Shown piece by piece: positions 256 through 32,827 of a DNA stretch of 64,000 nucleotides (within the stretch, counting starts at the first letter, position 1; each line of letters opens with the position of its first letter). The translations under genes and the position numbers were made by a program. Origin of the DNA: Frankiales bacterium (GTDB lineage: Bacteria > Actinomycetota > Actinomycetes > Mycobacteriales > SCTD01); NCBI GenBank assembly GCA_025966135.1, contig JAOPVP010000077.1, forward strand, positions 3,756 through 67,755. The letters run 5' to 3'. The notes beneath the pieces are model-generated. The model worked only from the letters and a program-made list of their open reading frames with translations, did no database searches and was not told where the DNA came from.

Positions 256-1047
256 ATGAACGAGGACCGCACCTCTCCCGCCAGTGCCGTGCTCGGTTTC
301 GTCACCGAGCTCCAGTCGCTGTTGCTGGACGGCCACGGGCTGGATGCCTTCCTCGCCGCGGCTGCCGGGCTGCTCGCCGCGCTCACCCATCCGAAGGTTC
401 TGTGCGCGATCAGCCTGCCGGCCGGTGGGCCGTGGGCCGGGCTCGGCGCGAACTGCCCCCGCGCCGCTCGGCTGCACCAGAAAGAGCTGACCATCCTCGA
501 CGGCCCCACGCACCAGGCGCTGCGACGCGGAGCGGTCGTCTACCAGGACGACGTCGACCAGCTCGGCTCGAAGCACTGCAGCCTCCTCGGCCGTCACCAC
601 GTTGCCAGCGTGCTCTCGATGCCGCTCCTGGTCGAAGGCCGCACGGTCGGCGTCAGCACGCTGTACGCCGGTCGGTCCCTAGGGACCGACGAGGTCCGGG
701 ATGTGCTCGTGGCCGGTCATGCGACAGCCACTGCACTGGTTGTCCGGCTCCGGGCCGAGGAGCAGGCGCGCGTCAACGACCAGCTGCGCCAGGCCGCGGC
801 CAGCCGCCCGGTCATCGACCAGGCGCTCGGCATCATGATGGGCTCGCGTGGCTGCACGGCCAGCGAGGCCTTCGACCTGCTGCGCGTGGACTCGCAGGCG
901 GCGAACCAGCCGGTGCGCGAGATTGCCGCCGGTCTGGTCGTCGCAGCCACGGGCAGGGCCCCAGAGGTCGCCCGTCCGTTCATGGTCCGGACGCCCCGCG
1001 CCGGCCTCAGGTGGGACCTCATTCAGACGAAGGACTCGTCGAGGTAG
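256..1047 (+). CDS. GAF + ANTAR domain RNA-binding (antitermination-type) regulator
   Basis: 263-aa ORF. The C-terminal segment 'RPVIDQALGIMMGSRGCTASEAFDLLRVDSQAANQPVREIA' fits the ANTAR pattern. The N-terminal ~160 aa look GAF-like ('VASVLSMPLLVEGRTVGVSTLYA'). Confidence 0.8.
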   Translation: MNEDRTSPASAVLGFVTELQSLLLDGHGLDAFLAAAAGLLAALTHPKVLCAISLPAGGPWAGLGANCPRAARLHQKELTILDGPTHQALRRGAVVYQDDVDQLGSKHCSLLGRHHVASVLSMPLLVEGRTVGVSTLYAGRSLGTDEVRDVLVAGHATATALVVRLRAEEQARVNDQLRQAAASRPVIDQALGIMMGSRGCTASEAFDLLRVDSQAANQPVREIAAGLVVAATGRAPEVARPFMVRTPRAGLRWDLIQTKDSSR

Positions 1048-1289
1048 CACCAGCGCCAGGCCTCGCCCGGCTCGAACGACTGCACGATCGGGTGGTCCTG
1101 GGCGAAGGCGTGCCGACGGGCGTGCCGGTGCGGCGAGGAGTCGCAACAGCCGACGTGGCCGCAGGACAGGCACAGCCGCAGGTGCACCCACGGCGACCCG
1201 ATCAGCAGGCACTCCTCACACCCGGCGGAGTGCGGTCGCACCGGCCGGATGGCGGACACGTGCGGGTCGAGCTGGGACGGGACCGTCAT
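1023..1289 (-). CDS. UBP-type zinc-finger domain protein
   Basis: 88-aa reading 'MTVPSQ...' in the 3' part of track ORF 1023..2408. Cys/His-rich 'CEECLLIGSPWVHLRLCLSCGHVGCCDSSPHRHARRH' is typical of ZnF-UBP. Its ATG overlaps the upstream gene's stop (ATGA at 1286-1289). Confidence 0.7.
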   Translation of the reverse strand: MTVPSQLDPHVSAIRPVRPHSAGCEECLLIGSPWVHLRLCLSCGHVGCCDSSPHRHARRHAFAQDHPIVQSFEPGEAWRWCYLDESFV

Positions 1290-2953
1290 GGCCGGGCCTC
1301 CGCGGCGGTGTGGGCAAAGAACTCGTGCAGGAGCCGGACGGCCATGGCGCCCTCGCCGACGGCCGAGGCGACCCGCTTGGTCGAGCCGCTGCGGACATCG
1401 CCGGCGGCGAAGACACCGGGCAGCGAGGTCGCCAGAGTTGGCGCGTCCCGTCCCGTCAGGATGAAGCCGTGCTCGTCGAGGTCGAGCTGTCCGGCCAGCC
1501 AGTCGACCTGGGGCACCGCCCCGATGAACACAAACAGCGCCCTTGCCGGGACGACCTCGCTGCCGCGCGGTCCTTCGACGACGACCTCGTCCAATCCCTC
1601 GTCGCCGTGCAGCTCGCGGATCTGGGTCCCAGTCCTGACCTCGATCGTGGGATGGCGCTCGATCCGGTCGACGAGGTAGCGGGACATGTTCGCCGGAAGG
1701 TTGTCGCCGCGCACTGCCAGCTGGACGCTGGAGCTGCGTTGGGCCAGGAACAGTGCGGCCTGGCCGGCCGCGTTGCCGCCACCCACGACGACCACGGGGT
1801 CGCCGGCGCAGGTCTGCGCTTCCACCTCGGTGGCCGCGTAGAAGACGCTCCTGGGCTCGAAGCGCTCGAGGTCGGGGACGTCGAGCCGCCGGTAATGCGC
1901 GCCGGTGCAGATGATCACAGCCCGGGTGACCATGTTCTTGCCGTCGTCCAGCCGAACGACGTGGAGGCCGTCCCGCTGGGCGAGGCCGACCGCTCCGGAC
2001 GGCACCCGGAGCTGCGCCCCGAAGCGCTCCGCCTGCAGCACCGCCCGGTCGGTCAGCTCGGCCCCGGAGATCCCGGCCGGGAAGCCCAGGTAGTTCTCGA
2101 TCCGCGACGATGTGCCCGCCTGCCCCCCGGTGGCGATCAGGTCCACGGCGACCGTCTCGAGCCCTTCTGACGCGGCGTAGACGGAGGCCGCAAGACCGGC
2201 AGGCCCTGCGCCGACGATGACGACGTCGGCCACCCCTGTCGGCGACGTGCGCTGTGGTTCGAGACCGAGCTGGGCGGCAAGGTCGGCGTTGCTCGGGTTG
2301 CGGAGCACGTACGAGGCGTTCCACATGACCACCGGGGCCTCTTCGGGCCGCACTCCGACCTCGCGGAGCAGGCTCTCGGCCTCGGCATCGCGCTCCAGGT
2401 CCAGCCATCGGAAGGGCATCCGGTTGCGCGCGGCGAACTCACAGAGCCGACGGGTGTCGGGCGAGTAGCGGGATCCCACGATCCGCAGGCCCGCGCCCAG
2501 GGAGATCAGCAGGGAGCGCCTGGCGAAGTAGGCGTGCAGGATCAGGTTGCCCAGGGCCGGGTCCTGCTCGGTGACCGTGAGCAGCCTGGCCACCGGGACG
2601 GCAAGCACGGATCCGGGCTCCTGCACTACGGCGGTGAGCAGCAGAGGCTGGCCGGTGAGCAGACCGACCCCACCGAGGAAGCGCCCGCGGCGATGGACGC
2701 TGAGGGTGTCGTCGCCGCTCCGCAGCGCCACGCTGCCGTCCAGCACCACGAAGAACTCGTGGCACCGCTGCCCTTCCCGGTACAGGACCTCGCCCGCCGA
2801 GACCGGCCGCTCCTCGCCGTGTTGGCTGAGGAGCGCGAGCTGGTCCTCGCTCAGCCGCGGGTAGGAACCGGTGCGGTCCGAGGTTTCGGCGCATGAGCTG
2901 TCGGGTGCTGAGACGCCTGGCCCTGTGGATGGCGTCGCGGTGTTGGCGGTCAC
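1286..2953 (-). CDS. cyclic-nucleotide-binding domain fused to a thioredoxin-reductase-like FAD/NAD(P) oxidoreductase
   Basis: The C-terminal half has 'VVIVGAGPAGLAASVYAASEG', 'VVVVGGGNAAGQAALFLA' and 'GVFAAGDVRSGSTKRVASAVGEGA'. The N-terminal part is CAP_ED-like ('FFVVLDGSVAL...RRGRFLGGVGLL'). The GTG start at 2953 was chosen 11 nt after the upstream stop; the start is uncertain. Confidence 0.8.
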   Translation of the reverse strand: MTANTATPSTGPGVSAPDSSCAETSDRTGSYPRLSEDQLALLSQHGEERPVSAGEVLYREGQRCHEFFVVLDGSVALRSGDDTLSVHRRGRFLGGVGLLTGQPLLLTAVVQEPGSVLAVPVARLLTVTEQDPALGNLILHAYFARRSLLISLGAGLRIVGSRYSPDTRRLCEFAARNRMPFRWLDLERDAEAESLLREVGVRPEEAPVVMWNASYVLRNPSNADLAAQLGLEPQRTSPTGVADVVIVGAGPAGLAASVYAASEGLETVAVDLIATGGQAGTSSRIENYLGFPAGISGAELTDRAVLQAERFGAQLRVPSGAVGLAQRDGLHVVRLDDGKNMVTRAVIICTGAHYRRLDVPDLERFEPRSVFYAATEVEAQTCAGDPVVVVGGGNAAGQAALFLAQRSSSVQLAVRGDNLPANMSRYLVDRIERHPTIEVRTGTQIRELHGDEGLDEVVVEGPRGSEVVPARALFVFIGAVPQVDWLAGQLDLDEHGFILTGRDAPTLATSLPGVFAAGDVRSGSTKRVASAVGEGAMAVRLLHEFFAHTAAEARP

Positions 2954-2964
2954 AGTGTCAGCGC

Positions 2965-3531
2965 TCAGGCGGTGCTGGCGGCGCGCATCACCACGACCTC
3001 GTAGTTGCGCTCCCAGCGGTGCACCCGCACCGCGAGGACCCCGAGGAGTCCGGCGTAGATGATGGCGTAGATGCCGATCAGCTGCGACAGTGCGAGTGCT
3101 CCGGCGACCGGCGCGACGACGAGCACGACGCCGAAGATCACGGACGCGACGCCTGCCAGGATGAGCACCCACTCGCCTTTGAGCACCTTGCGCCACCGAC
3201 TCGCGGCCACCATCTCCGCCACGCCCGTCACGATCGCCCAGGCCGCGATGAGGACGGTCAAGGCCAAGGCGGTCACGCCCGGCCAGACGAGGGTCAGCAC
3301 GCCCAGCCCGATGCCGGAGAGGGCACCGAAGATCTCGGCTCCGCGGCGGTCGTTGCCCGTTCCGGCACGGATCGTGCTGATAAGGAGGCTGACGCCGTCG
3401 ACCAGGCACCAGGCACCGAACAGCACGACGAGGACGAACAGCGTCACCCCGGGCCAGCTCAGGGCAAGGATGCCGAAGGCGAAGGCCAGCAGGGCGCGGG
3501 CGGCAAGCAGTGGCCAGATGTGGAGCTTCAT
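2965..3531 (-). CDS. HdeD/DUF308 family membrane protein
   Basis: 188-aa six-TM ORF with repeated 'LALSWPGVTL / LTLVWPGVTAL' segments characteristic of HdeD/DUF308. Confidence 0.7.
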   Translation of the reverse strand: MKLHIWPLLAARALLAFAFGILALSWPGVTLFVLVVLFGAWCLVDGVSLLISTIRAGTGNDRRGAEIFGALSGIGLGVLTLVWPGVTALALTVLIAAWAIVTGVAEMVAASRWRKVLKGEWVLILAGVASVIFGVVLVVAPVAGALALSQLIGIYAIIYAGLLGVLAVRVHRWERNYEVVVMRAASTA

Positions 3532-3581: not shown

Positions 3582-4571
3582 TCAACTTGGGAGAGCGGAC
3601 AGCACGACGGACAGGGTCTTTCGGTCCGGCCCCCGCTGGACGGTCATGTCGACCACGTCGGCGGGGCGGTGCCGGCGGACGAGGACCAGCAGGTCGTCCG
3701 CGCTCTTCACGACCTGGCCGTCGAAGCTGATGACGACGTCGCCGGGCCGCACACCTGCCTTGGCCGCGGGTCCTCCCGGGACCACGGAGAGCACCACGGC
3801 ACCCTCGATGACCTTGACGTGCAAAACGCGGGCGATCTCCGGCGTGAGTGTGCGCGGCAGCAGGCCCAGGTAGGCGTGCAGTGCGTGCCCGGTCTCCAGC
3901 AACTGGGGTACGACGTCGCGGACCTCGGCCGTCGGTGTCGCGAAACCGATCGAGACGGCGCCTGCGGCGGGTGGGATGTAGGCCTCGCTGATGCCGATGA
4001 CGCGCCCTTGGCCGTCGACAAGGGCACCGCCGGAGCTGCCGGGCGAGATGGCCGCGTCCGTCTGTATGAGGTCGACCATGGAGAGCTTCCCCGCACCGCC
4101 CGGGATGACGCGGTGCAGGGCGGAGACGACGCCCGCGCTCACCGTCTCCGCCAGACCGAGCGGACTGCCGATGGCGACCGCCGTGTCGCCCGGATCCGGT
4201 TCGTCGTTCCGGAAGATCGCCGGAGTCAATGCAGTGCGTGCGGACCGCACGAGCGCGAGGTCGCTGACGGGGTCGGTGGCCAGCACCTTGCCCGTACTCA
4301 CGATGCCGTCGGCGAAGGCGACGTCGACCGTCGTGGCGCCGCGTACGACGTGCTCGTCGGTGACGATCGTGCCGTTCTGGAGGTAGACCACGCCGCTTCC
4401 GACGCCCTTAGGTGTCGTGATCGTCACGATTGACGGCTGGACCCCACGCACCACCGCGGCGAGCCCCGTCGACGTTGCGGCGGTCGTCGCCGTGGTCGGC
4501 GAGCCGCGCGAACACGCGGCAGCCGTCAGGACCAGACCCGCGGCCAACGTGCGGTTCAAGCCGGCGCTCAC
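3582..4571 (-). CDS. lipoprotein S1C (trypsin-like) serine protease with C-terminal PDZ domain (HtrA-like)
   Basis: Lipobox 'LTAAAC'. 'TDAAISPGSSGGALV' is the catalytic Ser motif. PDZ-like 'GAVVLSVVPGGPAAKAGVRPGDVVISFDG'. Its GTG overlaps the clpB stop (GTGA at 4568-4571). Confidence 0.85.
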   Translation of the reverse strand: MSAGLNRTLAAGLVLTAAACSRGSPTTATTAATSTGLAAVVRGVQPSIVTITTPKGVGSGVVYLQNGTIVTDEHVVRGATTVDVAFADGIVSTGKVLATDPVSDLALVRSARTALTPAIFRNDEPDPGDTAVAIGSPLGLAETVSAGVVSALHRVIPGGAGKLSMVDLIQTDAAISPGSSGGALVDGQGRVIGISEAYIPPAAGAVSIGFATPTAEVRDVVPQLLETGHALHAYLGLLPRTLTPEIARVLHVKVIEGAVVLSVVPGGPAAKAGVRPGDVVISFDGQVVKSADDLLVLVRRHRPADVVDMTVQRGPDRKTLSVVLSALPS

Positions 4572-7213
4572 GCAGACACCGACGCTCGGTCGGAGGCGCG
4601 GTCTCCGGACTCGTCGAAGGTCACAGCCAGCTGGTCGTCCTCGATGTCGACCGTGATGATGCTGCCGTCCTTGACGTCTCCGCCGAGCAACGCACGGCCG
4701 ATCCGTGTCTCGACCTCGTGCGCGACGTACCGGCGCAACGGCCGGGCGCCGTAGACCGGGTCGAAGCCGGCCGCCGCGATGTGGCGCCGTGCCGCCGGCG
4801 TGAGCTCGAGCTGCAGCCGACGGTCAGCGAGCCGACGCCTGAGGTCGTCGAACTGCATGTCGACGACGAACTCGATCTGGGAGAGCGTGAGCGGCTTGAA
4901 GAGCACCACGTCGTCGATGCGGTTGAGGAACTCGGGCCGGAAATGCCCGCGCAACTCGAGCATCACGTGGTCTCGCGCTTCGGTGCTGATGCTGCCATCG
5001 GCGTTGACACCGTCGAGGAGGTAGAGCGACCCGAGGTTGGACGTCAGGATCACGACGGTGTTGCGGAAGTCGACCGTGCGGCCCTGCGCATCGGTGATGC
5101 GGCCGTCGTCGAGTAGCTGCAGCAACGTGTTGAAGACGTCCGCGTGCGCCTTCTCGATCTCGTCGAACAGCACCACCGAGTAGGGCTTGCGACGCACCGC
5201 TTCGGTGAGCTGGCCGCCCTCCTCGTAGCCGATGTAGCCAGGGGGCGCACCGACGAGGCGGCTCACCGTGTGCCTCTCCTGGTACTCGCTCATGTCGAGC
5301 CGGATCAGGTTCTCCTCCGAGTCGAACAGCGCCTCGGCCAGGGCCTTGGCCAGCTCGGTCTTCCCGACGCCGGTGGGGCCGAGGAAGATGAACGACCCGA
5401 TCGGGCGGCGTGGGTCCTTGATGCCGGACCGTGCCCGGATGATCGCGTCAGTGACCAGCTGCACGGCCTCGTCCTGCCCGACGACCCGACGGTGGAGGAC
5501 CTCGTCGAGCCGCAGCACCTTGTCGCGCTCGCCCTCGGTCAGCCGGCTCACCGGGATGTGGGTCCAGGCCGCCACGATCTCGGCGATCTCCTCCTCGGTC
5601 ACGACCTCACGCAGCAGCCGCCGCTGGCCCTGTTTGCTGGCCAGCTGCTCCTCCTGCGCCTCCAGGCGGCGCTCGAGCTCGGCCAGCTGGCCGTAGCGCA
5701 GCTCGGCGGCGCGATTGAGGTCGTAGCTCCGCTCGGCCTCCTCGGCTTCCCGCCGTACCCGCTCGAGCTCCTCGCGGAGCTCCTGGACCTTGCGGATGGC
5801 CTGCCGCTCGGCTTCCCACTGGGCCCGCTTGGCATCGGCCTCACTGCGCAGGTCGGCGAGCTCCCGCTGCAGCTCCTGAAGCCGGGCCTTGCTGGCCTCG
5901 TCGCTCTCTTTCGCGAGCGCGGCCTCCTCGATCTCAAGGCGGGTCACCCGTCGGATCAAGGCATCCAGCTCCGCAGGCATCGAGTCGATCTCGGTGCGCA
6001 GCCGGGCACAGGCCTCGTCGACGAGGTCGATGGCCTTGTCGGGCAGGAAGCGATCGGAAATGTAGCGGTGGCTCAGGGTCACCGCACTGACCAGCGCGGC
6101 ATCGGCGATCTTCACGCCGTGGAAGACCTCCAGTCGCTCGCGCAGGCCGCGCAGGATCGACACCGCGTCTTCGACCGTCGGTTCGTCGACGATCACCGGC
6201 TGGAACCGGCGCTCGAGAGCGGGGTCCTTCTCAACCCGCCGGTACTCGTCCAGCGTCGTCGCGCCGATCAGGTGCAGCTCGCCGCGGGCCAGCATCGGCT
6301 TGAGCATGTTGCCTGCGTCCATCGCGCCTTCAGCGGCGCCGGCACCGACGACGGTGTGGACCTCGTCGACGAACAGCAGGACCCGGCCTTCAGCGGCCTT
6401 GACTTCACCGAGGACTGCCTTGAACCGCTCCTCGAACTCACCGCGGTACTTCGCACCGGCCACCAGGGCACCCATGTCGAGGGCGAAGACCGTGCGGTCC
6501 CGCAGCCCTTCCGGGACGTCGCCGTGCAGGATGCGCTGCGCCAGACCTTCGGCGATCGCTGTCTTGCCGACGCCCGGCTCGCCGATGAGGACGGGGTTGT
6601 TCTTGGTCTTGCGGCTCAGGATCTGGATGACCCGGCGGATCTCGTTGTCGCGGCCGATCACGGGGTCCAGCAGGCCGGCCCGGGCGTCCTGCACGAGGTC
6701 GCGTCCGTACTTCGCGAGCGCCTCGTACGACGCTTCGGGGGTGCTGGAGGTGACGCGCTGGTTCCCCCGCACCGTCGTGAGGGCGGCGAGGAAGGACTCG
6801 CGGTCGATACCGTGCTGGGCCAGCTGCCGGCCGGAGGCCGTCGAGCTGCCCTCCTCGGCGAGCGCGAGCAGCAGGTGCTCGACCGAAACGTACTCGTCCT
6901 TCAAACGGCTGGCCTCACGCTCGGCCGTACCGAGCAGGCGCATGAGCCGCGACGTGACCTTCACGTCGTTCTGCGCGGCACCCGGGCCACTCACCTTCGG
7001 CCTGCGGGCGAGCTCCGCCTCGACATCTACCCGCACCTGTTCGGGGTCGGCGCCGGCCGCCTCCAGCAGTCGCGGGGCCAGCCCGTCGCGTTGCTCGAGG
7101 AGCGCCAGCAGCAGGTGCTCCCCGTCGACCTCCGGATGACCCAGCCGGGCGGCGGCCGACTGAGCCTCCGCCAGCGCCTCGTGCGACTTCGCGGTCAGCT
7201 TGTTCAGGTCCAT
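4568..7213 (-). CDS. clpB: ATP-dependent chaperone/disaggregase ClpB
   Basis: Two AAA+ modules ('[15 protein letters not shown]', '[15 protein letters not shown]') with a long coiled-coil M-domain between them. The internal start 'MDLNKLT' at 7213 replaces the Arg-rich extension of the track ORF. Confidence 0.95.
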
Positions 7214-7542
7214 AGCGCCGCCTGCGCAGGGCCGGCCTCGTCGCGCAGCGCGTCGAGGCGGTGAACGACGTCGAGCAGCAGCCCGATCGTCACGCATTCG
7301 GTCTGCACCCGAAGCGCGCCGGGTACGGCGGTCGCCTCCCCCGGCGACTCGGCCAGGAGGCCGACCGCGACGAACCGCCGTACCAGTTCAGGGCGCAGCC
7401 CTGCCCTGCACGCGAAGTCGTCCAGCCAGGCCCGCTCGCGGTCGAGCTCCGCCCGCAGAGTCTCCTGCCCGGCGTGGGTTTGGGCCAGGAGCCGCTCCAG
7501 CCTCGGAGGGGTATCCAGGTCGAGCATCTGGGACATATTCAC
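7204..7542 (-). CDS. divergent CbpM/MerR_2-like chaperone-modulator paralog
   Basis: 112-aa ORF. 'LDDFACRAGLRPELVRRFVAVGLL' parallels the HTH-like segment of the neighbouring gene. GTG start with GAGGAG 7 nt upstream. GTGA overlap with the upstream stop and a 10-nt overlap with the clpB start. Confidence 0.6.
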   Translation of the reverse strand: MNMSQMLDLDTPPRLERLLAQTHAGQETLRAELDRERAWLDDFACRAGLRPELVRRFVAVGLLAESPGEATAVPGALRVQTECVTIGLLLDVVHRLDALRDEAGPAQAALWT

Positions 7543-7847
7543 GTCGTCACTCCTCGGTGGGGGCGGACTGGTGAGCTGAGGGCTGCCTCGAGGGCAGCGA
7601 CCCGGTCGAGCAGGTCAAGCACGAGTCCGAGGGCCGCATAGTTCAGGCCGAGTCCGGTGCGGAGGCGCTGGGCCCTTGAGACCCGCGCGACGTCTCGTTG
7701 CTGGAAGCGGGCTTCCCCGTCGCGGGCCGGCGTCATGTCGACCAGACCGAGCGCGACGAAGCGTCGCACGAGGTCCGGATGCAGGCCGGCCTGCCGTGCG
7801 AGCGCGTCCAGCGTCAGGCCGTTCCTGCGCACCAGGGCTGATGTCAT
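7539..7847 (-). CDS. CbpM-like / HspR-like MerR-family small protein
   Basis: 102 aa from the internal ATG at 7847 (ATGA overlap with the J-protein stop). 'LTLDALARQAGLHPDLVRRFVALGLV...RAQRLRTGLGLNYAALGLVLDLLDRVAALE' follows the CbpM/MerR_2 pattern. Confidence 0.7.
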   Translation of the reverse strand: MTSALVRRNGLTLDALARQAGLHPDLVRRFVALGLVDMTPARDGEARFQQRDVARVSRAQRLRTGLGLNYAALGLVLDLLDRVAALEAALSSPVRPHRGVTT

Positions 7848-8728
7848 CGATCGGCCTTCCTGGGATCGAACGTGGACACGCGGGCGAGCTGCTCGAACAG
7901 CTCCTTCTCTTCCTTGGTGGGCTTGGGAGGGACCATGACCTCGATCTGCGCGTAGAGGTCGCCGGGCCGGCCCTTGGGGTTGGGCAGGCCCTGTCCCTTG
8001 AGGCGCAGCCGCCGGCCAGTCGAGCTGCCCGCCGGGACGTTGACCTTCACCTCGCCGCCGGGGGTGTCGACGAGCGCCTTGGCACCGAGGACTGCCTCCC
8101 ACGGCGTGACGGGCAGCGGCACGAAGATGTCGCGGCCGCGCACCTCGTACTTCGGGTGCGGTGCCAGCCGGACGACGAGGTACAGGTCGCCGGCCGGTCC
8201 ACCGCGGCCACCCCGTCCGCCCTCGCCGGCGAGGCGGATGCGCTGGCCGTCCGTGACGCCGGCGGGGATGGTGACCTCGAGCTCGCGGTCGCCGAACGAG
8301 AGCCGCCGGCGTCCCCCGGTGTAGGCCTCCTCGACGGTGAGGACCAGCTCTGCCTCCTGGTCGGCTCCGGGCATCGAACCGCCGCCGCGGCCGCCGAAGA
8401 GGCTGCTGAACAGATCTTCCACATCCATCCCGGAGCTGCCGTAGCCGCCAGAGCTGCCGTAGCGGAATGCCTGGCCACCGCCCGGCGCCCGCTCGGCGTC
8501 CTCGGGGTACTGCCGGAAGTCCGGCCCCCAGCGGTCGTAGCGGGCTCGGGTCTGGGGATCGGAGAGCACCTGGTAGGCCTCGTTGATCTCCTTGAACCGG
8601 TCTTCGGACCCCGGGTCCTTGGCGATGTCGGGGTGGTGCTTGCGGGCGAGGGACCGGTAGGCCCGCTGCAGGGCGTCGGCGTCAGCGTCGCGCCCCACCC
8701 CCAGGACCTCGTAGTAGTCGCGCGCCAT
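7844..8728 (-). CDS. cbpA: J-domain co-chaperone, class B (CbpA-like; no zinc-finger region)
   Basis: J-domain 'DYYEVLGVGRDADADALQRAYRSLARKHHPD', a G/F-rich linker, then DnaJ C-terminal domains. No CxxCxGxG repeats are present. Confidence 0.85.
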   Translation of the reverse strand: MARDYYEVLGVGRDADADALQRAYRSLARKHHPDIAKDPGSEDRFKEINEAYQVLSDPQTRARYDRWGPDFRQYPEDAERAPGGGQAFRYGSSGGYGSSGMDVEDLFSSLFGGRGGGSMPGADQEAELVLTVEEAYTGGRRRLSFGDRELEVTIPAGVTDGQRIRLAGEGGRGGRGGPAGDLYLVVRLAPHPKYEVRGRDIFVPLPVTPWEAVLGAKALVDTPGGEVKVNVPAGSSTGRRLRLKGQGLPNPKGRPGDLYAQIEVMVPPKPTKEEKELFEQLARVSTFDPRKADR

Positions 8729-8734
8729 CGCCGA

Positions 8735-9280
8735 TCAGCCCCGCTGCGAGACGGCGACCGCGGCTGGGCGGAGCTGCCGGTCGATCTCGCCGTAGCCGGG
8801 ACGCAGCACCTTGACGACCGTCCCCGCGTCGACCTCCGGGCTCTCCACGACCTCGACGACCTCGTGCCGTGCCGGGTCGAACGCGACCCCTTCCTGGTCG
8901 TCCCGCGGGTAGCCGAGGCTCTCCAGCACCGCGATCGCCTGATCGCGGACCGCCCGCACGCCCTGCAACAGCGACTCCGGATGCGACTGGCCGTGCTCCA
9001 GGGCCCGTTCGAGGTTGTCCACCAGCGGCAGCCACGCTGCTGCGACCCGGCCTCGCTCCACCTCCCGCTCGCGGGTGAGCTCGCGGGTATACCTCTTGCG
9101 CAGGTTGTCGAGGTCGGCCATGCAGCGCCGCCAGCGGTCCTCCTGCTCCGACTCCTCCTGCTGCTTCGCCGACTCCTCCTGCTGCTTCGCCGCGACCCCA
9201 GCCGTTGTGGCCGCAGCACTCGGCTGCCCGTCCGGCTCGTGCTGCTCGGGCGGGGAGTCGTGCGTCGCCGCACTCGTCAC
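8735..9280 (-). CDS. grpE: nucleotide exchange factor GrpE
   Basis: 'DLDNLRKRYTRE...WLPLVDNLERAL...GVAFDPARHEVV' are GrpE signatures. GTG start lies 2 nt after the dnaK stop. Confidence 0.9.
   Translation of the reverse strand: MTSAATHDSPPEQHEPDGQPSAAATTAGVAAKQQEESAKQQEESEQEDRWRRCMADLDNLRKRYTRELTREREVERGRVAAAWLPLVDNLERALEHGQSHPESLLQGVRAVRDQAIAVLESLGYPRDDQEGVAFDPARHEVVEVVESPEVDAGTVVKVLRPGYGEIDRQLRPAAVAVSQRG
9150..9191. repeat. perfect 21-bp tandem duplication inside grpE (in-frame AKQQEES x2)
   Basis: 'gactcctcctgctgcttcgcc' occurs twice back to back (9150-9170 and 9171-9191). It encodes 'AKQQEESAKQQEES' in the disordered GrpE N-terminus. Confidence 0.9.
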
Positions 9281-9282
9281 GG

Positions 9283-11169
9283 TCAGCTCCGGGTGAAGTC
9301 AGCGTCGATGACGTCGTCCTCGGACGACCCGCCGGACTGGCCGGCCGAGGCGCTGGTGCCGCTCTCACCAGCAGGGGTCGCCCGGATGCTCAGTGCCTGC
9401 TCCAGCTGCTGCAGCTCCTGCGTGAGCGCCCGCACCTCGTTGAGGGGCGTCTCGTCCCTGATGGCGTTGCGGGCGTCGACCACCAGTCCCTCGGCGCGCG
9501 CCTTGTCGTGCACCGGGGCGTTGTCGCCGACCTCGGCCAGTTTGCGCTCGACCCGGTAGGCGGCGGCATCGAGCTCGTTGCGCGCATCCACTGCTTCGCG
9601 CAGCTGCTTGTCCGACTCCCGGTTGCGGTCTGCCTCGGCCATCATCCGGTCCACCTCGCCACGGTCGAGGTTGGCGCTCTCGCTGATGGTGATGCTCTGC
9701 TCCTTGCCCGTGTCCTTGTCCTTCGCAGAGGCGTTGAGAATTCCGTTGGCGTCGATGTCGAAGGTGACCTCGACCTGCGGCTCACCGCGCCTGGCCGGCC
9801 GGATGTCCTCCAGCCGGAAGCGCCCGAGCACCCGGTTGTCGGAGGCCTTCTCGCGCTCGCCCTGCAGGACCACCACGTCGACGGCCGACTGGTTGTCCTC
9901 GGCGGTCGAGAAGGTCTCGCTGCGGCGCACCGGGATCGTCGTGTTGCGGTCCACGATCCGGGTCATGACGCCACCGCGGGTCTCGACGCCCAGCGACAGG
10001 GGCGTGACATCGAGCAGCAGCACGTCGGAGACGTCGCCCTTCAGCACACCGGCCTGGATCGCCGCGCCCATCGCGACGACCTCGTCCGGGTTCACCGTCA
10101 TGTTCGGGTCCTTGCCGCCTGTCAAGCGACGGACCAGCGCCTGCACAGCCGGGATCCGCGTCGAGCCACCGACCAGGATGACCTCGTCGATGTCGTTGGC
10201 CGACACCTTCGCGTCCTTCATCGCCTGCTGCACCGGGCCAAGGCAGCGCTCGACGAGGTCGTGGGTGATCTCGTCGAACGTCGACCGCATGATGGTGGCG
10301 GTGAGATGCTTCGGGCCACTCGCGTCCGCGGTGACGAATGGCAGGTTGACCTGCGTCTGCGTGACCGAGCTGAGCTCGACCTTGGCCTTCTCCCCGGCCT
10401 CGAAGAGCCGCTGCAGGGCCTGCGGGTCCTTGCGCAGGTCGATGCCGTTGTCCTTCTGGAACTGGTCGGCTAGATAGTCCACCAGCCGGCGGTCGAAGTC
10501 GTCCCCCCCGAGGTGGGTGTCACCGGAGGTGGATCGCACCTCGACCACGCCGTCGCCGACGTCGAGGATGCTCACGTCGAACGTCCCACCGCCGAGGTCG
10601 AACACCAGCACCGTCTCGTGCTGGCGCTTGTCGAGGCCGTAGGCCAGCGCCGCCGCCGTTGGCTCGTTGATGATGCGCAGTACCTCGAGCCCGGCGATCT
10701 TGCCGGCGTCACGGGTTGCCGTGCGCTGCGCGTCGTTGAAGTAGGCCGGGACCGTGATGACGGCCTCGGTCACCTTCTCCCCCAGGAACTTCGCGGCGTC
10801 GTCGACGAGCTTGCGAAGCACCAGGGCGCTGATCTCCTCCGGCGCGTACTTCTTGCCGTGCACGTCGAACCGCACGGTGCCGTCCGGCCCGGGCACCACG
10901 TCGTACGACACCGCCTTGAGCTCCTCGGTGACCTCGTCGTACTTGCGGCCGATGAAGCGCTTGGCCGAGGAGACAGTGCCCTTCGGATTCATGATCGCCT
11001 GGCGGCGGGCCAGCTGCCCGACGAGTCGCTCACCGCTCTCGGTGAAGGCCACCACGGACGGTGTCGTCCGAGCCCCCTCCGCGTTGGGGATGACGGTGGC
11101 CTGCCCGCCTTCGAAGGTCGCGATGACGGAGTTGGTCGTTCCGAGGTCGATGCCGACTGCGCGTGCCAT
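9283..11169 (-). CDS. dnaK: Hsp70 chaperone DnaK
   Basis: '[12 protein letters not shown]', '[12 protein letters not shown]' and '[14 protein letters not shown]' are present. 628 aa. AGGAGA lies upstream of the ATG. Confidence 0.97.
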
Positions 11170-11229
11170 GAAAGGTCTCCTGTGCTCGCCATGGGTCCCG
11201 GACGGATGTCCGCTCAGGGGACGGCACTG

Positions 11230-11267
11230 GGTGACGAACTCAACGCGTCACCGGTCTTCACGACCGG
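11230..11267. promoter_or_regulatory. two adjacent inverted repeats upstream of dnaK (candidate operator)
   Basis: GGTGACG-N9-CGTCACC (11230-11252) overlaps CCGGTC-TTCAC-GACCGG (11251-11267). They lie 60-100 nt upstream of the dnaK ATG. No canonical CIRCE or full HAIR element was seen. Confidence 0.3.
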
Positions 11268-11509
11268 CCGCCCGAGACGTGGCTCCGGCTGCTGTCTCAA
11301 CCGGGGGGCGGCGATCCGCCCGATCCCACGACCTGGCGATGTCCGCTCGGTCGGGACCCAAACCCCCGGTGACAAAAACTTTCCCAGCGGGGTCGGTCTG
11401 CCCAGTGCCGAGGCGGCGTCGTCGCGAGGGCGCAGATCTCCTCGGCGCGCAACAGACGGGCGATGGGCTGCCTCCTGACCGATGCGCGGGCTGACCTCCG
11501 GAGCGGCTC

Positions 11510-11887
11510 GTGGACCTGGTGGACCTGGTGCCACCCGACGGCCGCCTGGTCGGTCGCTGGCAACGCTCGCTGCTGGCGACCGCCCGCGGGCATCGTGACA
11601 CGACCACGGACGTCAGCTGGCTGCAGGGACGCACGTTGTACGTCGACCTCCGCACGCCGGTCCCCGCGGCCGATTTGTCCGCCGTCCGCTGCCTACGCGA
11701 CCTGTCCACCGACCAGGCAGTCGCGCTCGCCGCGGACGGGCCGTGGGCCCGTTGGGTGCGCTGGTCGACCTCCAGCCACCCGCCCGGGCTGTCGACGAGG
11801 TCGAGGCCGGGGCTCATGCCGCTCCAGCGGCGACCCCAGGTACAGCGGCTCAGCCATGCTCGCCGTCCCGCTCCGGATGCCTCCTAG
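11510..11887 (+). CDS. hypothetical protein
   Basis: 125-aa ORF with high third-position G+C throughout and a plausible sequence 'GRWQRSLLATARGHRDTTTDVSWLQGRTLYVDLRTP'. It begins with a 9-bp tandem 'gtggacctg' x2. No domain recognised. Confidence 0.35.
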   Translation: MDLVDLVPPDGRLVGRWQRSLLATARGHRDTTTDVSWLQGRTLYVDLRTPVPAADLSAVRCLRDLSTDQAVALAADGPWARWVRWSTSSHPPGLSTRSRPGLMPLQRRPQVQRLSHARRPAPDAS

Positions 11888-12936
11888 GCGAGGTAGGCGA
11901 TCAGCGCGGCGGCGAACGCGACGTAGAAGCCAGCCGCACGGAGCAGCCGCATGGGGGTGGCCTGGTTGCGCCGGAAAAGTGTGAGCAGGTACACGACGGA
12001 AGCGAGTGTGGCGATGCCTGCGAGGACAAGCGGCGTGTCGAACTTCCACGGTGTGAACAGGAGGCCGAGCGCGGTCGGGACGGTCGCCTGGATCATCATG
12101 GCGCCGCTGATGTTGGCGAGGGCCAGGGGCGTCTTGCCCTGCCGGACCCAGATGATCGCGTTCATGATCTCCGGGAGCTCGGTCGCGACCGGGCTGAGCA
12201 GCAGCGCGACGACAACGGCCGGGAGGCCGAGCGCCGGGCCGGCCCAGTCGAGCTGGGCGACGAACAGTTGGCTCGCCGCGAAGATGACCGCCAGAGTGAC
12301 CAGGGTCTGCGCGACGACGGCGAACGTAGTCGGGACGGGCCGCTGCTTCTGGAAGGTGAGCGGCTCGAGGCCTTCGGCGCTGGCCTGCTCGCCGGTGCCG
12401 CGCATCTCCCGCACCGCATAGGCGCCGTACGCGAGCAGGAACACGATGCCCAGCCACGGCTTGATGCTGAAGGCGACCAGGCCGAGCGCGACCTTGAAGA
12501 CGAAGATCGACAGGAACCAGGTCTGATCGCGGGCAAGACCGGCTATGTCGGTCCCGTCGAGTGGCCCGCGATCAGCCACAGCCACCGGGCCGCCTGGGCC
12601 GCCGGCCAGTGAGGCGACAGTTGCCGCACCGGCTTTGGTGCGATGCCGGAGCAGAAGCATCCCACCGACGACCGCGTACGCCAGCGTCCCCACCACGAGA
12701 GGACCCCCAAGGGCAGCGCCGACACCGATGTCCTTGCCGGAGTGGCCGCCGAACAGGACAGCGACGAACGTGACCACGCTCTCGGGCAGCGCGGTCCCGA
12801 CGGCGGCCAGGATGGTCCCGACCGCGACCGGTCCGACCTTCATGCGGACCCCGAGCCACTCGACGGCGTTCACGAACGCCTCGCAGGCCAGGTAGATCGT
12901 GACGGCGCAGCCGAGCAGGAGAATGACATGAAGCAC
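11884..12936 (-). CDS. CaCA-family sodium/calcium (cation/Ca2+) exchanger membrane protein
   Basis: 350-aa polytopic ORF with two alpha-repeat-like segments ('GTALPESVVTFVAV' and 'PVATELPEIMNAIIWV'). Confidence 0.8.
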   Translation of the reverse strand: MLHVILLLGCAVTIYLACEAFVNAVEWLGVRMKVGPVAVGTILAAVGTALPESVVTFVAVLFGGHSGKDIGVGAALGGPLVVGTLAYAVVGGMLLLRHRTKAGAATVASLAGGPGGPVAVADRGPLDGTDIAGLARDQTWFLSIFVFKVALGLVAFSIKPWLGIVFLLAYGAYAVREMRGTGEQASAEGLEPLTFQKQRPVPTTFAVVAQTLVTLAVIFAASQLFVAQLDWAGPALGLPAVVVALLLSPVATELPEIMNAIIWVRQGKTPLALANISGAMMIQATVPTALGLLFTPWKFDTPLVLAGIATLASVVYLLTLFRRNQATPMRLLRAAGFYVAFAAALIAYLA

Positions 12937-12980
12937 GAACGGATCCTTCCGCGTGAGCCGCGGACCAGGTGCCCGATGCT

Positions 12981-13035
12981 GGGCGACCTCGGCCCACGGC
13001 AGATAGACATCTGACGTCGGCCGAAGGTCTCGCCC
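12981..13035 (-). other. candidate structured 5' leader of the antiporter mRNA (long imperfect hairpin)
   Basis: On the minus strand GGGCGAGACCUUCGGCC...GGCCGAGGUCGCCC can pair (~14 bp, ~24-nt loop), 45-100 nt upstream of the start at 12936. Confidence 0.25.
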
Positions 13036-13073
13036 ACCCGCACCACGCCAGGTGGTGACGGGCCCGGGAACCG

Positions 13074-13091
13074 GGAACCTCGAGAGGTTCC
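13074..13091. promoter_or_regulatory. 18-bp palindrome GGAACCTC-GA-GAGGTTCC in a divergent intergenic region
   Basis: 8+8 perfect arms with a 2-nt centre. It is preceded by tandem CGGGAAC CGGGAAC and by CACCAC-N5-GTGGTG (13041-13057). It lies between the antiporter (-) and cupredoxin (+) genes. Confidence 0.35.
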
Positions 13092-13264
13092 AGCATGTCG
13101 ACTCACCGGCGGAGCGGGCTACTCCCCTTCAACGCGGGCGACTATACCCAACCTGGCCGGAACCTGACGAATCAGGTCCTAGGACGATTGGTCACTTCCG
13201 ATCAGGCCGGGCGGGCTCGACAGTCTCAGCACCGCCCCTTCCCGCGGATCATCGGAGGTCCATC

Positions 13265-13696
13265 GTGCCGCGCTCACCTTCCCGCCTCACCATCGTCCCG
13301 CTCGTCGTCCTCGTCGGGATCGCGCTGACGGGCTGCTCATCCGGGAGCTCGAAGCAGGCGACCGTCAGCCCCCTCACCGCGACGCAGGCCCCAGCGCCGA
13401 CCACCGACGCGACCACGACAGCACCCACCAGCGACACCGCCACCGGATCATCCCTGCAGATCGCCAACTTCACGTACGACCCGACGCCGCTGACGGTTGC
13501 CCCTGGCACGACCATCCCGGTGAAGAACACCGACGGCGCCGAGCACACCGTCACGTCCGACCTGGCCGGGCTGTTCAAAGCTGACGATGTCAAAACCGGG
13601 AAGACCGTCTCGTTCAAGGCCCCGATTAAGCCGGGGACCTACACCTTCCACTGCGACTACCACGCGCGGATGCACGGCACCCTCATTGTCAAGTAG
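13265..13696 (+). CDS. cupredoxin (plastocyanin/amicyanin-like) blue-copper lipoprotein
   Basis: GTG start with GGAGG 7 nt upstream. Lipobox 'ALTGC'. Type-1 Cu ligand pattern 'AEHTV ... FHCDYHARMHG' (His, Cys, His, Met). Confidence 0.8.
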   Translation: MPRSPSRLTIVPLVVLVGIALTGCSSGSSKQATVSPLTATQAPAPTTDATTTAPTSDTATGSSLQIANFTYDPTPLTVAPGTTIPVKNTDGAEHTVTSDLAGLFKADDVKTGKTVSFKAPIKPGTYTFHCDYHARMHGTLIVK

Positions 13697-18875: not shown

Positions 18876-19230
18876 GGCTCTTGGTACTTGAGCGGGGTCC
18901 TCGACCGCTGATGGTTCACGCGGCCCGGAGGGCTGCGCTGTGCAACATGATGCGCCTTTCGTAGTTGGCTTGGTCGCGGAAGCCGCAGGCGACGCGCTTG
19001 ATCTCCTTGATGACGCGGTTGCAGCCCTCGGTCCTGGCGTTGGTGATACCGAGCTCGAGGAACCCTTCGATCTCGATCGTGCCCGCCAGGCGGGTCGTCT
19101 CGGGCATGGACGCGACCGCGCAGGCGGCCAGGAACCGGGTCCGGCGGTGGGCGGACTCGTGCCGGGTGTGGCGGGTCGGGCCGTGCGCGGCGAGCAGCTG
19201 CCGCAGGATCTCCTCGCAGGCCCACGCTGA
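18876..19230 (-). mobile_element. ISL3-family IS remnant: transposase C-terminal ~105 aa plus terminal inverted repeat
   Basis: '[55 protein letters not shown]' is the ISL3 transposase tail (stop at 18916). The outer end starts 'GGCTCTTGGTACTTGAG' at 18876, typical of an ISL3 IR. The 5' two-thirds of the IS is missing. Confidence 0.75.
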
Positions 19231-19332
19231 TCTCGCTGGTCGGGTCGTCGATGGCGACGCAGTTCCGACTTGCTGGTTGACCAACTGGGCGACACGGTCC
19301 ATCTCTCGGAAGGGGTCGAATCGCATGACCAT
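19231..19332 (-). pseudogene. hsp20 (alpha-crystallin small heat-shock protein) N-terminal stub fused in frame to the IS remnant
   Basis: '[25 protein letters not shown]' matches actinobacterial Hsp18/Hsp20 N-termini. The alpha-crystallin domain is absent. Confidence 0.6.
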
Positions 19333-19369
19333 GATCGCTTCTCCTGTTCTTGCGGACGGAGAGTGCGGA

Positions 19370-19809
19370 TTACGCGGACGGGGGTTTCGTCACGTCAGCC
19401 GCCAGGTGAGCGGAGCCGAGGATGCGCCTCGCGTCCGCGTAGTGGCTCTCGTCCACGACGACGTTGTAGGTGGCGGCTTCGAGTCCGGACACGGACGTGA
19501 AGTCGCGTTGGCCCCCTGTCAGGAGGTGGGCCACTGTGCCCCAGACAGCTCCGAAAAGTGCCCCTTGCCGCACACCGACAGGAGGGCCTCCGGCGCCCAG
19601 GGACCGACGATCCAGACCACGAAACCGATGAATAGCCCCAGCCACACCCCCGTTGCCATTCCGGCAAGCGCGGCGCGGCAGACGGTCAGGCGGCCGATCA
19701 CCTTCTCCGTGATGCGGACATCCTGGCCGAGGATGCTCACGTACTAGACGGGGAAATTCGCATCAGCCAGTCGGTCGACGACGCGTCGCGCGGCTAGGTA
19801 ACCTCGCAT
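19370..19809 (-). pseudogene. general-stress-protein (YflT/GSP17M-like N-domain + 2 TM) pseudogene with one nonsense codon and one frameshift
   Basis: From the ATG at 19809: 'MRGYLAARRVVDRLADANFPV*YVSILGQDVRITEKVIGRLT...GPWAPEALLSV', a frameshift near 19565-19572, then 'GALFGAVWGTVAHLLTGGQRDFTSV...YNVVVDE'. The in-frame TAG is at 19744-19746. Confidence 0.65.
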
Positions 19810-22111: not shown

Positions 22112-22499
22112 GAGGTCTCAACACCTCTCGTTCGCGACGGGTCGTCGCATCCAGAGACGATCCGGCATCCGCAGCGGCGCCGCTTCGTGTCAAGCGGACG
22201 AAATCAAGGATCCAGCCCCGGCCCAGGGCAGCGGCTCCGAGGATCGCGTGGCCGGCGATGATGCTGTCAAGCCGAGAAATGTGGTCACCGTTCGTCCTGG
22301 CAGACCTAGATGCGAGAAGGGACATCGGAGGGCTGACGAAACGAGCCACCAGACGTATGTTGGGGTCACGGGTGCCTGACCGGGCTCGCTGGCCAGGCAT
22401 GTGCATCAGGCCTTCGGGCAGCGCCAGGGTGAAAGGCGGCTCGCCGTGACACCCGCTCCGACACTCCACGCGGCTGCCATGCCGCAAGGTGAAGTCGTC

Positions 22500-24227: not shown

Positions 24228-24865
24228 GCGACGTGCAACTTGGCGTGCCCGGGATGGATTTCCAGCCTGGGGACCACGTCTGCGCGATGTACATGGGGAC
24301 TCGTCAACGGGATGAGTTCCTGCTCCCGTTCCTGCGCTCCGGGCTGACGGCCGGGGACAAGTGCCTCTGCATCGTCGACTCCTCCGACCCGGGAACGACT
24401 GTGGAGGCGTTGCGCGGCGGCCTGACGGGAATTGATATCGAGGACTGTCTGGCCGCCGGGCAGCTGGAGGTGATCGGTTCGATCGGCACCTACCTCTCGA
24501 GCGGCGCCTTCGTGAAACAGGATGTGCTCGACTTCTGGGAACGCAACCTCGGGCAAGGGCTTGCGACGGGCCGCTACCAGTTCGCGCGGGCCGCGGGCGA
24601 GATGCCCGAGGGGTTGCGCAGGGTGCCGGGGGGCATCCAGGCGTTCATGGACTACGAGGCAGAACTGAACCTGTTCACGAAGAGGCACCCGCAGCAAGTC
24701 CTGCTCTGCATGTACGACCTGGACCTGTTTGGTGGCGGTATCATCGTCGATCTGCTTCCGACGCACTCGAGGCTGCTTCTCGGCGGACTGGTGCTCGACA
24801 ACCCGCACTTCCAGCCCCCGCCCCACCAGGCAGCGAACACCCGTGCATCGAGCTGGCACAGTTAG
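24224..24865 (+). CDS. MEDS-domain (DcmR-like sensory) protein
   Basis: 213 aa. 'GDHVCAMY...FLLPFLRSGLTAGDKCLCIV' and 'VLLCMYDLDLF' fit the MEDS pattern. ATGA overlap with the PucR-family gene. Confidence 0.65.
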   Translation: MSDVQLGVPGMDFQPGDHVCAMYMGTRQRDEFLLPFLRSGLTAGDKCLCIVDSSDPGTTVEALRGGLTGIDIEDCLAAGQLEVIGSIGTYLSSGAFVKQDVLDFWERNLGQGLATGRYQFARAAGEMPEGLRRVPGGIQAFMDYEAELNLFTKRHPQQVLLCMYDLDLFGGGIIVDLLPTHSRLLLGGLVLDNPHFQPPPHQAANTRASSWHS

Positions 24866-24892: not shown

Positions 24893-25348
24893 TCACAGCA
24901 GCAGGTCAAACAGTCGCTCGGCTCGTTCCCAATGCGTTGTCTGGGGGTTCTTCAGATCTGGGTCGAGCAACCGCATGGCTCGCGCCAGCGCCACACTCAC
25001 GCCTCCGGCAACAGAGACGAGGCCGTTCCTCGTCTGCTCGCTGTAGTCGAAGTCCGTTGGCGGTAGCGGCGTGATCTCCCGGAGGGCTCTGGTCAGGTCG
25101 ACCTCGGAATCGACCTTTTCGAACTCGTGCAGACAAGCCTGCAACCCCGCGGTGATCGGCAGGTCCCACAACTCGATCAAGTCACGGCCGTTGGCCTTAG
25201 CGACAGCCTCAGCACGAACGACGAGGCTCCGCAGCCGCGCATCGATGAAGTCCTGGTGCCGTTTGATGTCGTTCTTGTCGATGTTGAGACCTGCCGCCGC
25301 CCGGAAGAACCTTTCCCACGTATTCACGGATGTCACGGCCAACGTCAT
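24893..25348 (-). CDS. DUF1931-like (histone-fold-like) protein
   Basis: 151 aa from the internal ATG (GAGGA upstream). 'WERFFRAAAGLNIDKNDIKRHQDFI...AKANGRDLIELWDLPIT...KNPQTTHWERAERLFDLLL' matches my recollection of DUF1931 proteins. Confidence 0.6.
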   Translation of the reverse strand: MTLAVTSVNTWERFFRAAAGLNIDKNDIKRHQDFIDARLRSLVVRAEAVAKANGRDLIELWDLPITAGLQACLHEFEKVDSEVDLTRALREITPLPPTDFDYSEQTRNGLVSVAGGVSVALARAMRLLDPDLKNPQTTHWERAERLFDLLL

Positions 25349-32812: not shown

Positions 32813-32827
32813 CGGGCGCCTTGCGGG

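Follow-up and report, generated by a model that had tools for sequence, protein, structure and literature searches.

The canonical chaperone locus of Actinobacteria has the layout dnaK-grpE-dnaJ-hspR, with clpB as a separate gene under the control of HspR. The locus described here lies on the minus strand of a 64,000-nucleotide stretch of DNA from a Frankiales bacterium (contig JAOPVP010000077.1; the whole stretch, with a G+C content of about 70%, is called the window) and places dnaK, grpE, a J-protein gene, the gene of a small modulator and clpB in a single array. Judged by gene order and protein sequence, it is not a canonical dnaK-hspR operon and belongs to the Thermus-type family of dnaK-grpE-dnaJ(class B)-dafA-clpB operons, a type known first from Thermus. 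It is likely to be an accessory, not a housekeeping, proteostasis operon of this type, in which the modulator gene has been duplicated and the genes of an HtrA-like protease (htrA) and of a DUF308 membrane protein stand in line.

In Thermus thermophilus (locus L011) the order of the genes is dnaK (615 amino acids, aa), grpE, dnaJ (280 aa), dafA (78 aa, PF13591) and clpB, and past clpB lie rubrerythrin-like, HSP20, thioredoxin, DUF1931, PsiE and cation/proton-exchanger genes. The Thermus DnaJ is a class B protein, and DafA assembles DnaK and this DnaJ into a complex, and substrate drives DafA out of it (PMC3727329). The cbpA-cbpM genes of E. coli and Klebsiella likewise encode a class B J-protein directly followed by a small protein of the MerR_2 family, but they form a two-gene operon without dnaK, grpE and clpB. 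CbpM, which is structurally MerR-like, blocks the J-domain of CbpA. Its essential residue Glu62 contacts the His of the HPD motif, and an evolutionary kinship of CbpM and HspR has been argued from the structure (PMC4063869). CbpM has been described as conserved in gamma-proteobacteria (Mayer 2021 review). The proteobacterial tLST/LHR island carries clpK, shsp, yfdX, hdeD, trx, kefB, psiE-like and degP genes (PMC8290217). A literature search for a described actinobacterial dnaK2/clpB operon gave only monocistronic Streptomyces dnaK2/3 and Propionibacterium paralogues, the architecture of which differs.

The window contains dnaK, grpE, the J-protein gene, the modulator gene and clpB in the order of the Thermus locus, all on one strand. 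A second small gene, named X here, stands between the modulator gene and clpB, and further genes follow clpB. The features, in the direction of transcription, are as follows:

11251-11267, minus strand: palindrome CCGGTC-N5-GACCGG, about 85-100 nucleotides (nt) 5' of the dnaK ATG
9283-11169, minus strand: dnaK, 628 aa, the Hsp70 of the likely accessory operon (PF00012, E 1e-242; NF001413, 945 bits)
8735-9280, minus strand: grpE, 181 aa, GTG start (PF01025, E 2e-32)
7844-8728, minus strand: class B J-protein, 294 aa (PF00226 and PF01556 only)
7539-7847, minus strand: DafA/CbpM-like modulator, 102 aa (PF13591, MerR_2)
7204-7542, minus strand: X, predicted diverged tandem duplicate of the modulator, 112 aa, GTG start
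4568-7213, minus strand: clpB, full-length disaggregase, 881 aa counted from the ATG at 7213 (TIGR03346)
3582-4571, minus strand: htrA, HtrA-like S1C serine protease, 329 aa, GTG start (Trypsin_2 and PDZ_2)
2965-3531, minus strand: DUF308/HdeD-like membrane protein, 188 aa (PF03729, E 1e-26, three repeats)
1286-2953, minus strand: fusion of a cyclic-nucleotide (cNMP)-binding domain and a thioredoxin reductase (TrxR)-like flavoprotein, 555 aa with the GTG at 2953 as start (PF00027 and PF07992)

An initial annotation, made without database searches, had claimed that the seven minus-strand genes between 3582 and 11169 abut or overlap. The list of open reading frames (ORFs) and the junction sequences bear this out, and all six junction readings were reproduced exactly in the minus-strand sequence. 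The dnaK and grpE genes are 2 nt apart (TGA-CC-GTG), and 6 nt separate grpE from the J-protein gene (TGA-TCGGCG-ATG). The J-protein and modulator genes share an ATGA overlap, the modulator gene and X a GTGA overlap, X and clpB a 10-nt overlap (ATGGACCTGA), and clpB and htrA again a GTGA overlap. Stop and start codons overlap at four of the six junctions of the seven-gene array, and identical junctions were called independently in the closely related metagenome contigs L002 and L013. Such overlapping and abutting stop and start codons suggest that the genes from dnaK to htrA are co-transcribed as one translationally coupled unit. The joining of clpB and the gene of an HtrA-like lipoprotein protease within one array, which had also been claimed, is confirmed by the Pfam and NCBIfam matches and by the junctions.

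Shine-Dalgarno-like sequences are found 8 nt ahead of the dnaK ATG (AGGAG), before grpE (GGAG), before the modulator gene (AGGAAGG) and 7 nt ahead of the GTG of X (GAGGAG); an ATG lies two codons past the GTG of X. The mechanical ORF of clpB reaches back to 7297, and the ATG at 7213 (MDLNKLT) was preferred as the plausible start. In L013, clpB (10638-13219) is called as two genes of 741 aa and 112 aa, as a result either of a frameshift that made it a pseudogene or of an error in the assembly. The array runs on beyond the seven genes into two further minus-strand genes. The first of these, the DUF308/HdeD-like gene, follows htrA after a 50-nt gap and is preceded by a good Shine-Dalgarno sequence; the cNMP-TrxR-like gene follows after a gap of about 11 nt and is the last of the co-directional array. 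The transcript probably continues through the TrxR-like gene.

Proteins were assigned to families with Pfam (gathering thresholds) and the NCBIfam equivalog cut-offs, and structural relatives were found by a search of PDB sequences. Pfam and NCBIfam support every earlier family assignment save that of X. DnaK exceeds its NCBIfam equivalog cut-off, and its best PDB match is the T. thermophilus chain 9dvi_B with 756 bits, against 683 for E. coli and 667 for M. tuberculosis (6w6e_I). GrpE is confirmed by Pfam, yet it scores under every NCBIfam GrpE equivalog cut-off. The J-protein consists of the DnaJ and DnaJ_C domains without the zinc-finger domain (Pfam), which makes it a class B protein; among PDB chains it is closest to T. 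thermophilus DnaJ 2 (6psi/9dvi, 214 bits). It had been placed initially in the CbpA class. The lack of a zinc finger stands, but the protein reaches the equivalog cut-off neither of CbpA nor of DnaJ (245.7 against 403 for the CbpA model NF007618). ClpB reaches 1310.5 bits with TIGR03346 (cut-off 1232.1), contains the Clp_N, AAA, AAA_lid_9, AAA_2 and ClpB_D2-small domains, and is closest in the PDB to T. thermophilus 1qvr_A (1051 bits, against 992 for M. tuberculosis ClpB, 6dju). The ClpK/ClpG models score about 760 bits with the window ClpB against cut-offs of 1900. For all four proteins of the chaperone set (DnaK, the J-protein, the modulator and ClpB) the best PDB match is a T. thermophilus chain.

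The resemblance to Thermus extends to details. The N-terminal 160 residues of the DnaK proteins were aligned, with an M. tuberculosis sequence identical to the PDB chains 4rtf/6w6e, and a 22-residue insert was found to be common to the window, to all related actinobacterial loci and to Thermus, and to be absent from M. tuberculosis DnaK. Both loci have the same order of the five core genes, a class B J-protein, and a PF13591 protein the gene of which starts within the end of dnaJ and lies ahead of clpB. The differences are that Thermus DafA has 78 aa and the window modulator 102 aa, with about 36% identity; that Thermus has a single dafA, whereas the window has X as a second, diverged modulator gene; and that htrA, DUF308 and cNMP-TrxR genes follow clpB in the window, whereas a rubrerythrin-like gene and then HSP20 and trx genes follow it in Thermus. 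The canonical operon shares the dnaK-grpE-J-protein start and a gene of the MerR superfamily in fourth place. The window locus differs from it in the DnaK insert, the J-protein without zinc finger, a MerR_2 protein instead of HspR in fourth place, the absence of HAIR and the presence of clpB in the array. The initial interpretation, a remodelled textbook dnaK-grpE-dnaJ-hspR operon to which clpB had been added, was wrong: the locus is of the Thermus-order operon family, in which clpB after the modulator is the rule.

The modulator matches PF13591 with 49.6 bits (gathering cut-off 29). Its best PDB match is the chain 9dvi_S, 'Protein DafA' (E 1.4e-7), and CbpM (3ucs) is found with E 0.0036; a search with the DafA chain leads to Thermus proteins named dafA, all of which are PF13591 members. 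More than 2,396 homologues of the modulator were found, and its NCBI name in many actinobacterial genera is 'chaperone modulator CbpM'. The initial annotation had called both small proteins CbpM-like. This holds in that the first is a MerR_2 member and the second its diverged paralogue, and the proposed scoring with HMMER of CbpM/MerR_2 against HspR upholds MerR_2 for the first protein but neither equivalog: the modulator reaches 30.4 bits with the CbpM model NF007617 (cut-off 138) and 38.3 bits with the HspR model NF047375 (cut-off 105). It also matches MerR_1 with 24.8 bits, above the cut-off of 21.6. Both the J-protein and the modulator thus lie under the CbpA/CbpM equivalog cut-offs, and Glu62 of E. 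coli CbpM is not kept. The HMMER alignment to 3ucs_A puts Gly65 of the modulator at this position, within a GLGLNY motif that is invariant in the actinobacterial proteins; Thermus DafA has Asp there.

X matches no Pfam or NCBIfam model. A profile of X finds MerR_2-like proteins at E values of 1e-4 to 5e-9, the weak matches being ordinary MerR_2 modulators, and BLASTP aligns X with the adjacent modulator at 42% identity over 74 aa (E 3e-10). This similarity makes X a modulator paralogue. In the alignment, a stretch of about 11 residues of the modulator, RxQRLRTGLGLN, is missing from X, and X is extended by about 25 residues at its N-terminus. X retains the helices 'AGLxPxLVRRFVAxGLL' and, at the C-terminus, the helix 'GLLLDVxxRLxxL'. 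Single-copy modulators elsewhere end in ...WT and overlap clpB. In the window both traits belong to X, a finding that fits a tandem duplication of which the downstream copy has diverged. The overlapped clpB start imposes the final 'WT' on the actinobacterial CbpM/DafA-like proteins, ATG GAC in one frame being TGG ACx in the other; this constraint applies at 7204-7213 of the window and at the homologous junctions in L007, L009 and L010.

The X family is very small. Only 7 homologues were found among 5.8 billion proteins, an exhaustive profile search of 1.84 billion protein representatives gave one cluster, and a scan of 185,579 species representatives with X-specific patterns found X in a single genome, which is a metagenome-assembled genome of Frankiales. 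The 8 sequences of the family are 63-95% identical, with 47 invariant columns and in-frame indels, and the ratio of non-synonymous to synonymous substitution rates (dN/dS) is 0.19-0.49, the same range as for the intact modulator. X is under purifying selection, and these invariant columns and dN/dS values argue that it is a real gene. It is, therefore, very improbable that X is what a duplication left behind as a decaying pseudogene, or a chance ORF of GC-rich DNA. The failure to match any family model, the low confidence of its AlphaFold model and an antisense ORF overlapping X, with a high G+C content at third codon positions (GC3), are what such an origin could explain; the Shine-Dalgarno-like sequence before its GTG and the conservation of its 10-nt overlap with clpB speak, like the substitution pattern, for a functional gene. 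X is accompanied by htrA and DUF308 in L002, L013 and probably L003, and occurs without htrA in L001 and L006.

The five-gene core is widespread in Actinobacteria. The order dnaK-grpE-J-modulator-clpB is found in genomic contexts of Rhodococcus, Streptomyces, Mycobacterium and Actinopolymorpha, where the core is usually followed by genes for thioredoxin, a UBP-type zinc-finger protein, the cNMP/TrxR fusion and DUF1931. In metagenomes, 80 loci from a contig scan were compared, with neighbours scored by tblastn. The DnaJ gene is directly upstream of the modulator gene in all 72 assessable loci, and clpB is directly downstream of it in 62 of 65, the remaining three having thioredoxin there; thioredoxin is next past clpB in 17 of 24 loci. 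A separate X gene and a DUF308 gene were each seen in 1 of the 80 loci, and an in-line htrA in none. The joining of clpB to the dnaK genes is the norm for this operon family, and what is unusual is confined to the duplicated modulator and the in-line htrA/DUF308. The seven-gene order, which had been proposed for comparison with related loci, recurs in L002 and L013 and is not unique, but it is confined to a small Frankiales-like clade.

The accessory island of Rhodococcus, Nocardia, Mycobacterium and Streptomyces has the order yflT-dnaK-grpE-J-cbpM-clpB-trxA-zfUBP-cNMP/TrxR-DUF1931, with htrA divergent, and either yflT or hsp20 often stands ahead of dnaK. Its core proteins are 60-79% identical to those of the window, the HtrA-like protein 51%, and the cNMP-TrxR gene is the same. 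Unlike the window, this island has a single-copy modulator, a divergent upstream htrA, and trxA and zf-UBP past clpB. The modulator gene is present on 19 actinobacterial plasmids, including those of Rhodococcus, Nocardia, Gordonia and Streptomyces, and a mobilizable Nocardia farcinica plasmid carries the whole island with flanking IS3 transposases and a trypsin-like peptidase divergently upstream. In the window a fragment of an ISL3-family transposase (DDE_Tnp_ISL3, of which only the C-terminal part is present) is found at 18916-19389 on the minus strand, about 8 kb away from the operon, in keeping with mobility or rearrangement of the region. The widespread and mobile presence of the Thermus-type operon in Actinobacteria appears to be little discussed in the searched literature.

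The HtrA-like protein contains Trypsin_2 (E 7.5e-27) and PDZ_2 (E 1.2e-15) with one PDZ region, and the His/Asp/Ser motifs DEHVV, SDLAL and GSSGG are read in its translation; its score of 246.8 is under the Do-family subfamily cut-off of 416. It has a lipoprotein-type N-terminus, and the Cys past the hydrophobic stretch is kept in all four homologues. The protein at the equivalent position in L002 is 75% identical. The 51% identity to the divergent HtrA adjoining the Rhodococcus operon extends over the full length, and both proteins have the lipoprotein N-terminus. The occurrence of such a protease divergently upstream of the Rhodococcus and Nocardia islands points to a recurrent companion of the island, which, to judge from the sequences, moved into the operon in the window lineage. 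A DUF308/HdeD-like gene is found at the equivalent position in L002, L013, L001 and L006. The cNMP-TrxR-like protein, which scores 211 bits with TIGR01292, under the cut-off, occurs past clpB-trx-zf-UBP in Rhodococcus, Streptomyces and Mycobacterium, on the Nocardia plasmid and in many metagenome loci.

The region upstream of dnaK was searched for known regulatory elements. HAIR (CTTGAGT-N7-ACTCAAG) has no match in the whole window with up to 3 mismatches, a search of the window for CIRCE gave none upstream of dnaK, and an Rfam scan of the whole window gave nothing at gathering thresholds. The 260-nt dnaK leader does not fold into a significant structure (z = -1.7). No common operator emerged when 37 related upstream regions were scanned for k-mers and HAIR-like sites; in many of the related operons hsp20 or yflT is the first gene, and the start lies further upstream. 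The palindrome at 11251-11267 is kept in L013, imperfect in L006 and not found in more distant loci, and is a candidate operator or RNA hairpin. A SigF/SigB-like GTTT-N16-GGGT about 210 nt 5' of dnaK occurs in only 2 of the 37 related upstream regions, and no claim is made for it. Action of an adjacent GAF-ANTAR regulator on a dual hairpin in the dnaK leader was also considered and dropped, the hairpins being without ANTAR-type loops. GAF-ANTAR or PAS-ANTAR regulators adjoin the operon in three loci (window 256-1047, plus strand; L001 1830-3289; L008 16406-17050).

The gap of about 714 nt (11170-11883) between dnaK and the upstream Na/Ca-exchanger gene is unusually long and contains several imperfect inverted repeats. 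A plus-strand ORF at 11495-11887 has a GC3 of 0.86 and no Pfam match. A PucR-like regulator (GGDEF_2 and HTH_30; 22380-24227, plus strand), followed by a MEDS-domain protein (24212-24865, plus strand), is encoded elsewhere in the window. In Streptomyces, too, a PucR-like gene (L009 3236-4996) stands upstream of the accessory dnaK operon and is divergent from it, and the protein is a possible island regulator.

Genes for DUF1931 (24893-25465, minus strand), a ferritin/rubrerythrin-like protein (32234-32812, plus strand) and PsiE (32813-33385, plus strand) lie 14-22 kb from the operon. In the Thermus locus the DUF1931, rubrerythrin-like and PsiE families are likewise found past clpB, and the Rhodococcus and Nocardia islands have DUF1931 as their last gene. 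The DUF1931, PsiE, ferritin-like and PucR-like genes of the window match the Thermus and Streptomyces neighbourhoods, and the families held in common with Thermus suggest a larger, dispersed stress-gene neighbourhood. Two other genes of the window were noted: an unusual fusion of phosphoribosyltransferase and erythromycin-esterase domains (33478-35664, plus strand, 728 aa), and a cupredoxin-domain protein with a weak anti-sigma-K match (RskA_C; 13052-13696, plus strand) between the Na/Ca-exchanger and epimerase genes.

These observations can be joined in the following account. The core would encode a self-contained, cognate disaggregation set of Hsp70, Hsp40, nucleotide exchange factor and Hsp100, together with a small MerR_2 modulator. 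The analogous proteins DafA of Thermus and CbpM of E. coli make it most likely that the modulator binds the class B J-protein; it would keep DnaK and DnaJ inactive or stored until stress releases the pair. DnaK, DnaJ and GrpE would then dissolve aggregates together with the ClpB of the same operon. Among Actinobacteria the core would be part of a horizontally mobile stress island with trx, zf-UBP, cNMP-TrxR, DUF1931 and a nearby HtrA-like gene. In the Frankiales lineage the modulator gene would have been duplicated in tandem, X keeping the clpB overlap, losing the helix-3 segment and gaining an N-terminal helix, and htrA and DUF308/hdeD would have moved directly behind clpB in place of trx and zf-UBP. 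X keeps the putative dimerisation helix and lacks the helix-3 segment, which in CbpM bears J-domain contacts. Such a protein could heterodimerise or compete with the intact modulator; X is probably its partner or competitor, and would by pairing or competition alter the threshold of chaperone release. The HtrA, HdeD-like and TrxR-like proteins would widen the response to envelope and redox damage. A function of the whole operon in stress tolerance is inferred from its gene content.

Other explanations of the same array have been weighed. If the tight spacing of the genes reflected genome compaction, the array would not be one coupled transcription unit, and htrA, DUF308 and the TrxR-like gene would have promoters of their own. 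The 50-nt gap and good Shine-Dalgarno sequence before DUF308, the 150-nt gap before clpB in Thermus and the divergent htrA of Rhodococcus and Nocardia, which shows that this gene is workable as a separate unit, are in keeping with such an arrangement. The stop/start overlaps at most of the junctions are, however, kept in L002 and L013, and a simple scan of the coding strand within 3582-11169 found neither terminator-like nor sigma-70-like sites, so that separate units are considered rather unlikely. It is unlikely, too, that the two MerR_2-family proteins act as HspR-like autoregulatory repressors in the regulator slot and not as modulators at the protein level. The MerR_1 match and the weak HspR score of the modulator, the argued kinship of CbpM and HspR and a palindrome upstream of dnaK that is kept in three related loci would suit repressors; the HspR score lies far under its cut-off, HAIR is absent from the window, no motif is common to the 37 upstream regions, X lacks a segment of the helix-3 region, and the closest structural relatives, DafA and CbpM, are protein-binding modulators. 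That the locus is the sole housekeeping dnaK locus of the organism, having replaced the canonical operon in the Frankiales lineage, would agree with the lack of a second dnaK in the visible 64 kb. This is quite improbable, given that operons of this type are an extra copy in Rhodococcus, Nocardia, Gordonia and Streptomyces, where they occur on plasmids, that the DnaK bears the insert absent from M. tuberculosis DnaK, and that a transposase fragment and other stress-island genes are nearby.

Several points nevertheless weigh against reading the locus as an accessory Thermus-type operon under the control of a DafA-like modulator. The Thermus locus has a 150-nt gap before clpB, whereas clpB of the window overlaps the preceding gene. 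Co-transcription of clpB and dafA in Thermus was reportedly described by Motohashi et al. (1996, 1999), and what the Thermus locus itself displays is gene order. The modulator has no acidic residue equivalent to the essential Glu62, and its binding mode may differ from that of CbpM; its weak HspR and MerR_1 scores mean that it may bind DNA. The AlphaFold2 model of X, built from the 8-sequence alignment, has a mean pLDDT of 52 and was not used for a fold search. The consensus of the promoter scan was of the E. coli type, ill-suited to high-GC Actinobacteria, and internal promoters may exist; the 50-nt gap before DUF308 is a candidate position for one. The presence of a canonical dnaK-hspR locus elsewhere in the organism is assumed from a 64-kb view of the genome.

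The accessory Thermus-type operon invites comparison with the tLST/LHR. This is a comparable mobile island, in which a disaggregase is combined with envelope (HdeD, DegP) and redox (Trx) genes, and PsiE-like and cation-exchanger genes, as in tLST, are found elsewhere in the window. The disaggregase of the window, however, is a ClpB with its own DnaK system and not a stand-alone ClpK/ClpG, the unit is without small heat-shock protein (sHSP/HSP20) or YfdX genes, and the genes are not orthologous and belong to another phylum, so that the likeness is functional only. Tentatively, and with more doubt than confidence, the locus could be regarded as an undescribed actinobacterial counterpart of the tLST: a horizontally mobile island with an orthogonal Thermus-type DnaK/DnaJ/DafA/ClpB set, in which the DafA-like switch would in a Frankiales lineage have become a two-component modulator, the intact copy and X, that adjusts chaperone release, and in which an envelope module of HtrA and HdeD-like proteins would be co-translated with the disaggregase.

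The control of Hsp70 by proteins of the DafA/CbpM type is usually treated as a Thermus curiosity or as a feature of gamma-proteobacteria. It would be wider than usually stated, being at the core of a widespread, partly plasmid-borne accessory operon of Actinobacteria. The cooperation of DnaK and ClpB is species-specific, and the joint transfer of dnaK, its co-chaperones and clpB fits this specificity. The in-line htrA and hdeD genes suggest a joint repair of cytosolic and envelope proteins, and the duplication of the modulator is a natural experiment in which the gating of J-proteins by small MerR-like proteins could be studied. Current understanding is not overturned by the locus, which carries a known system into a phylum new to it and contributes a variant.

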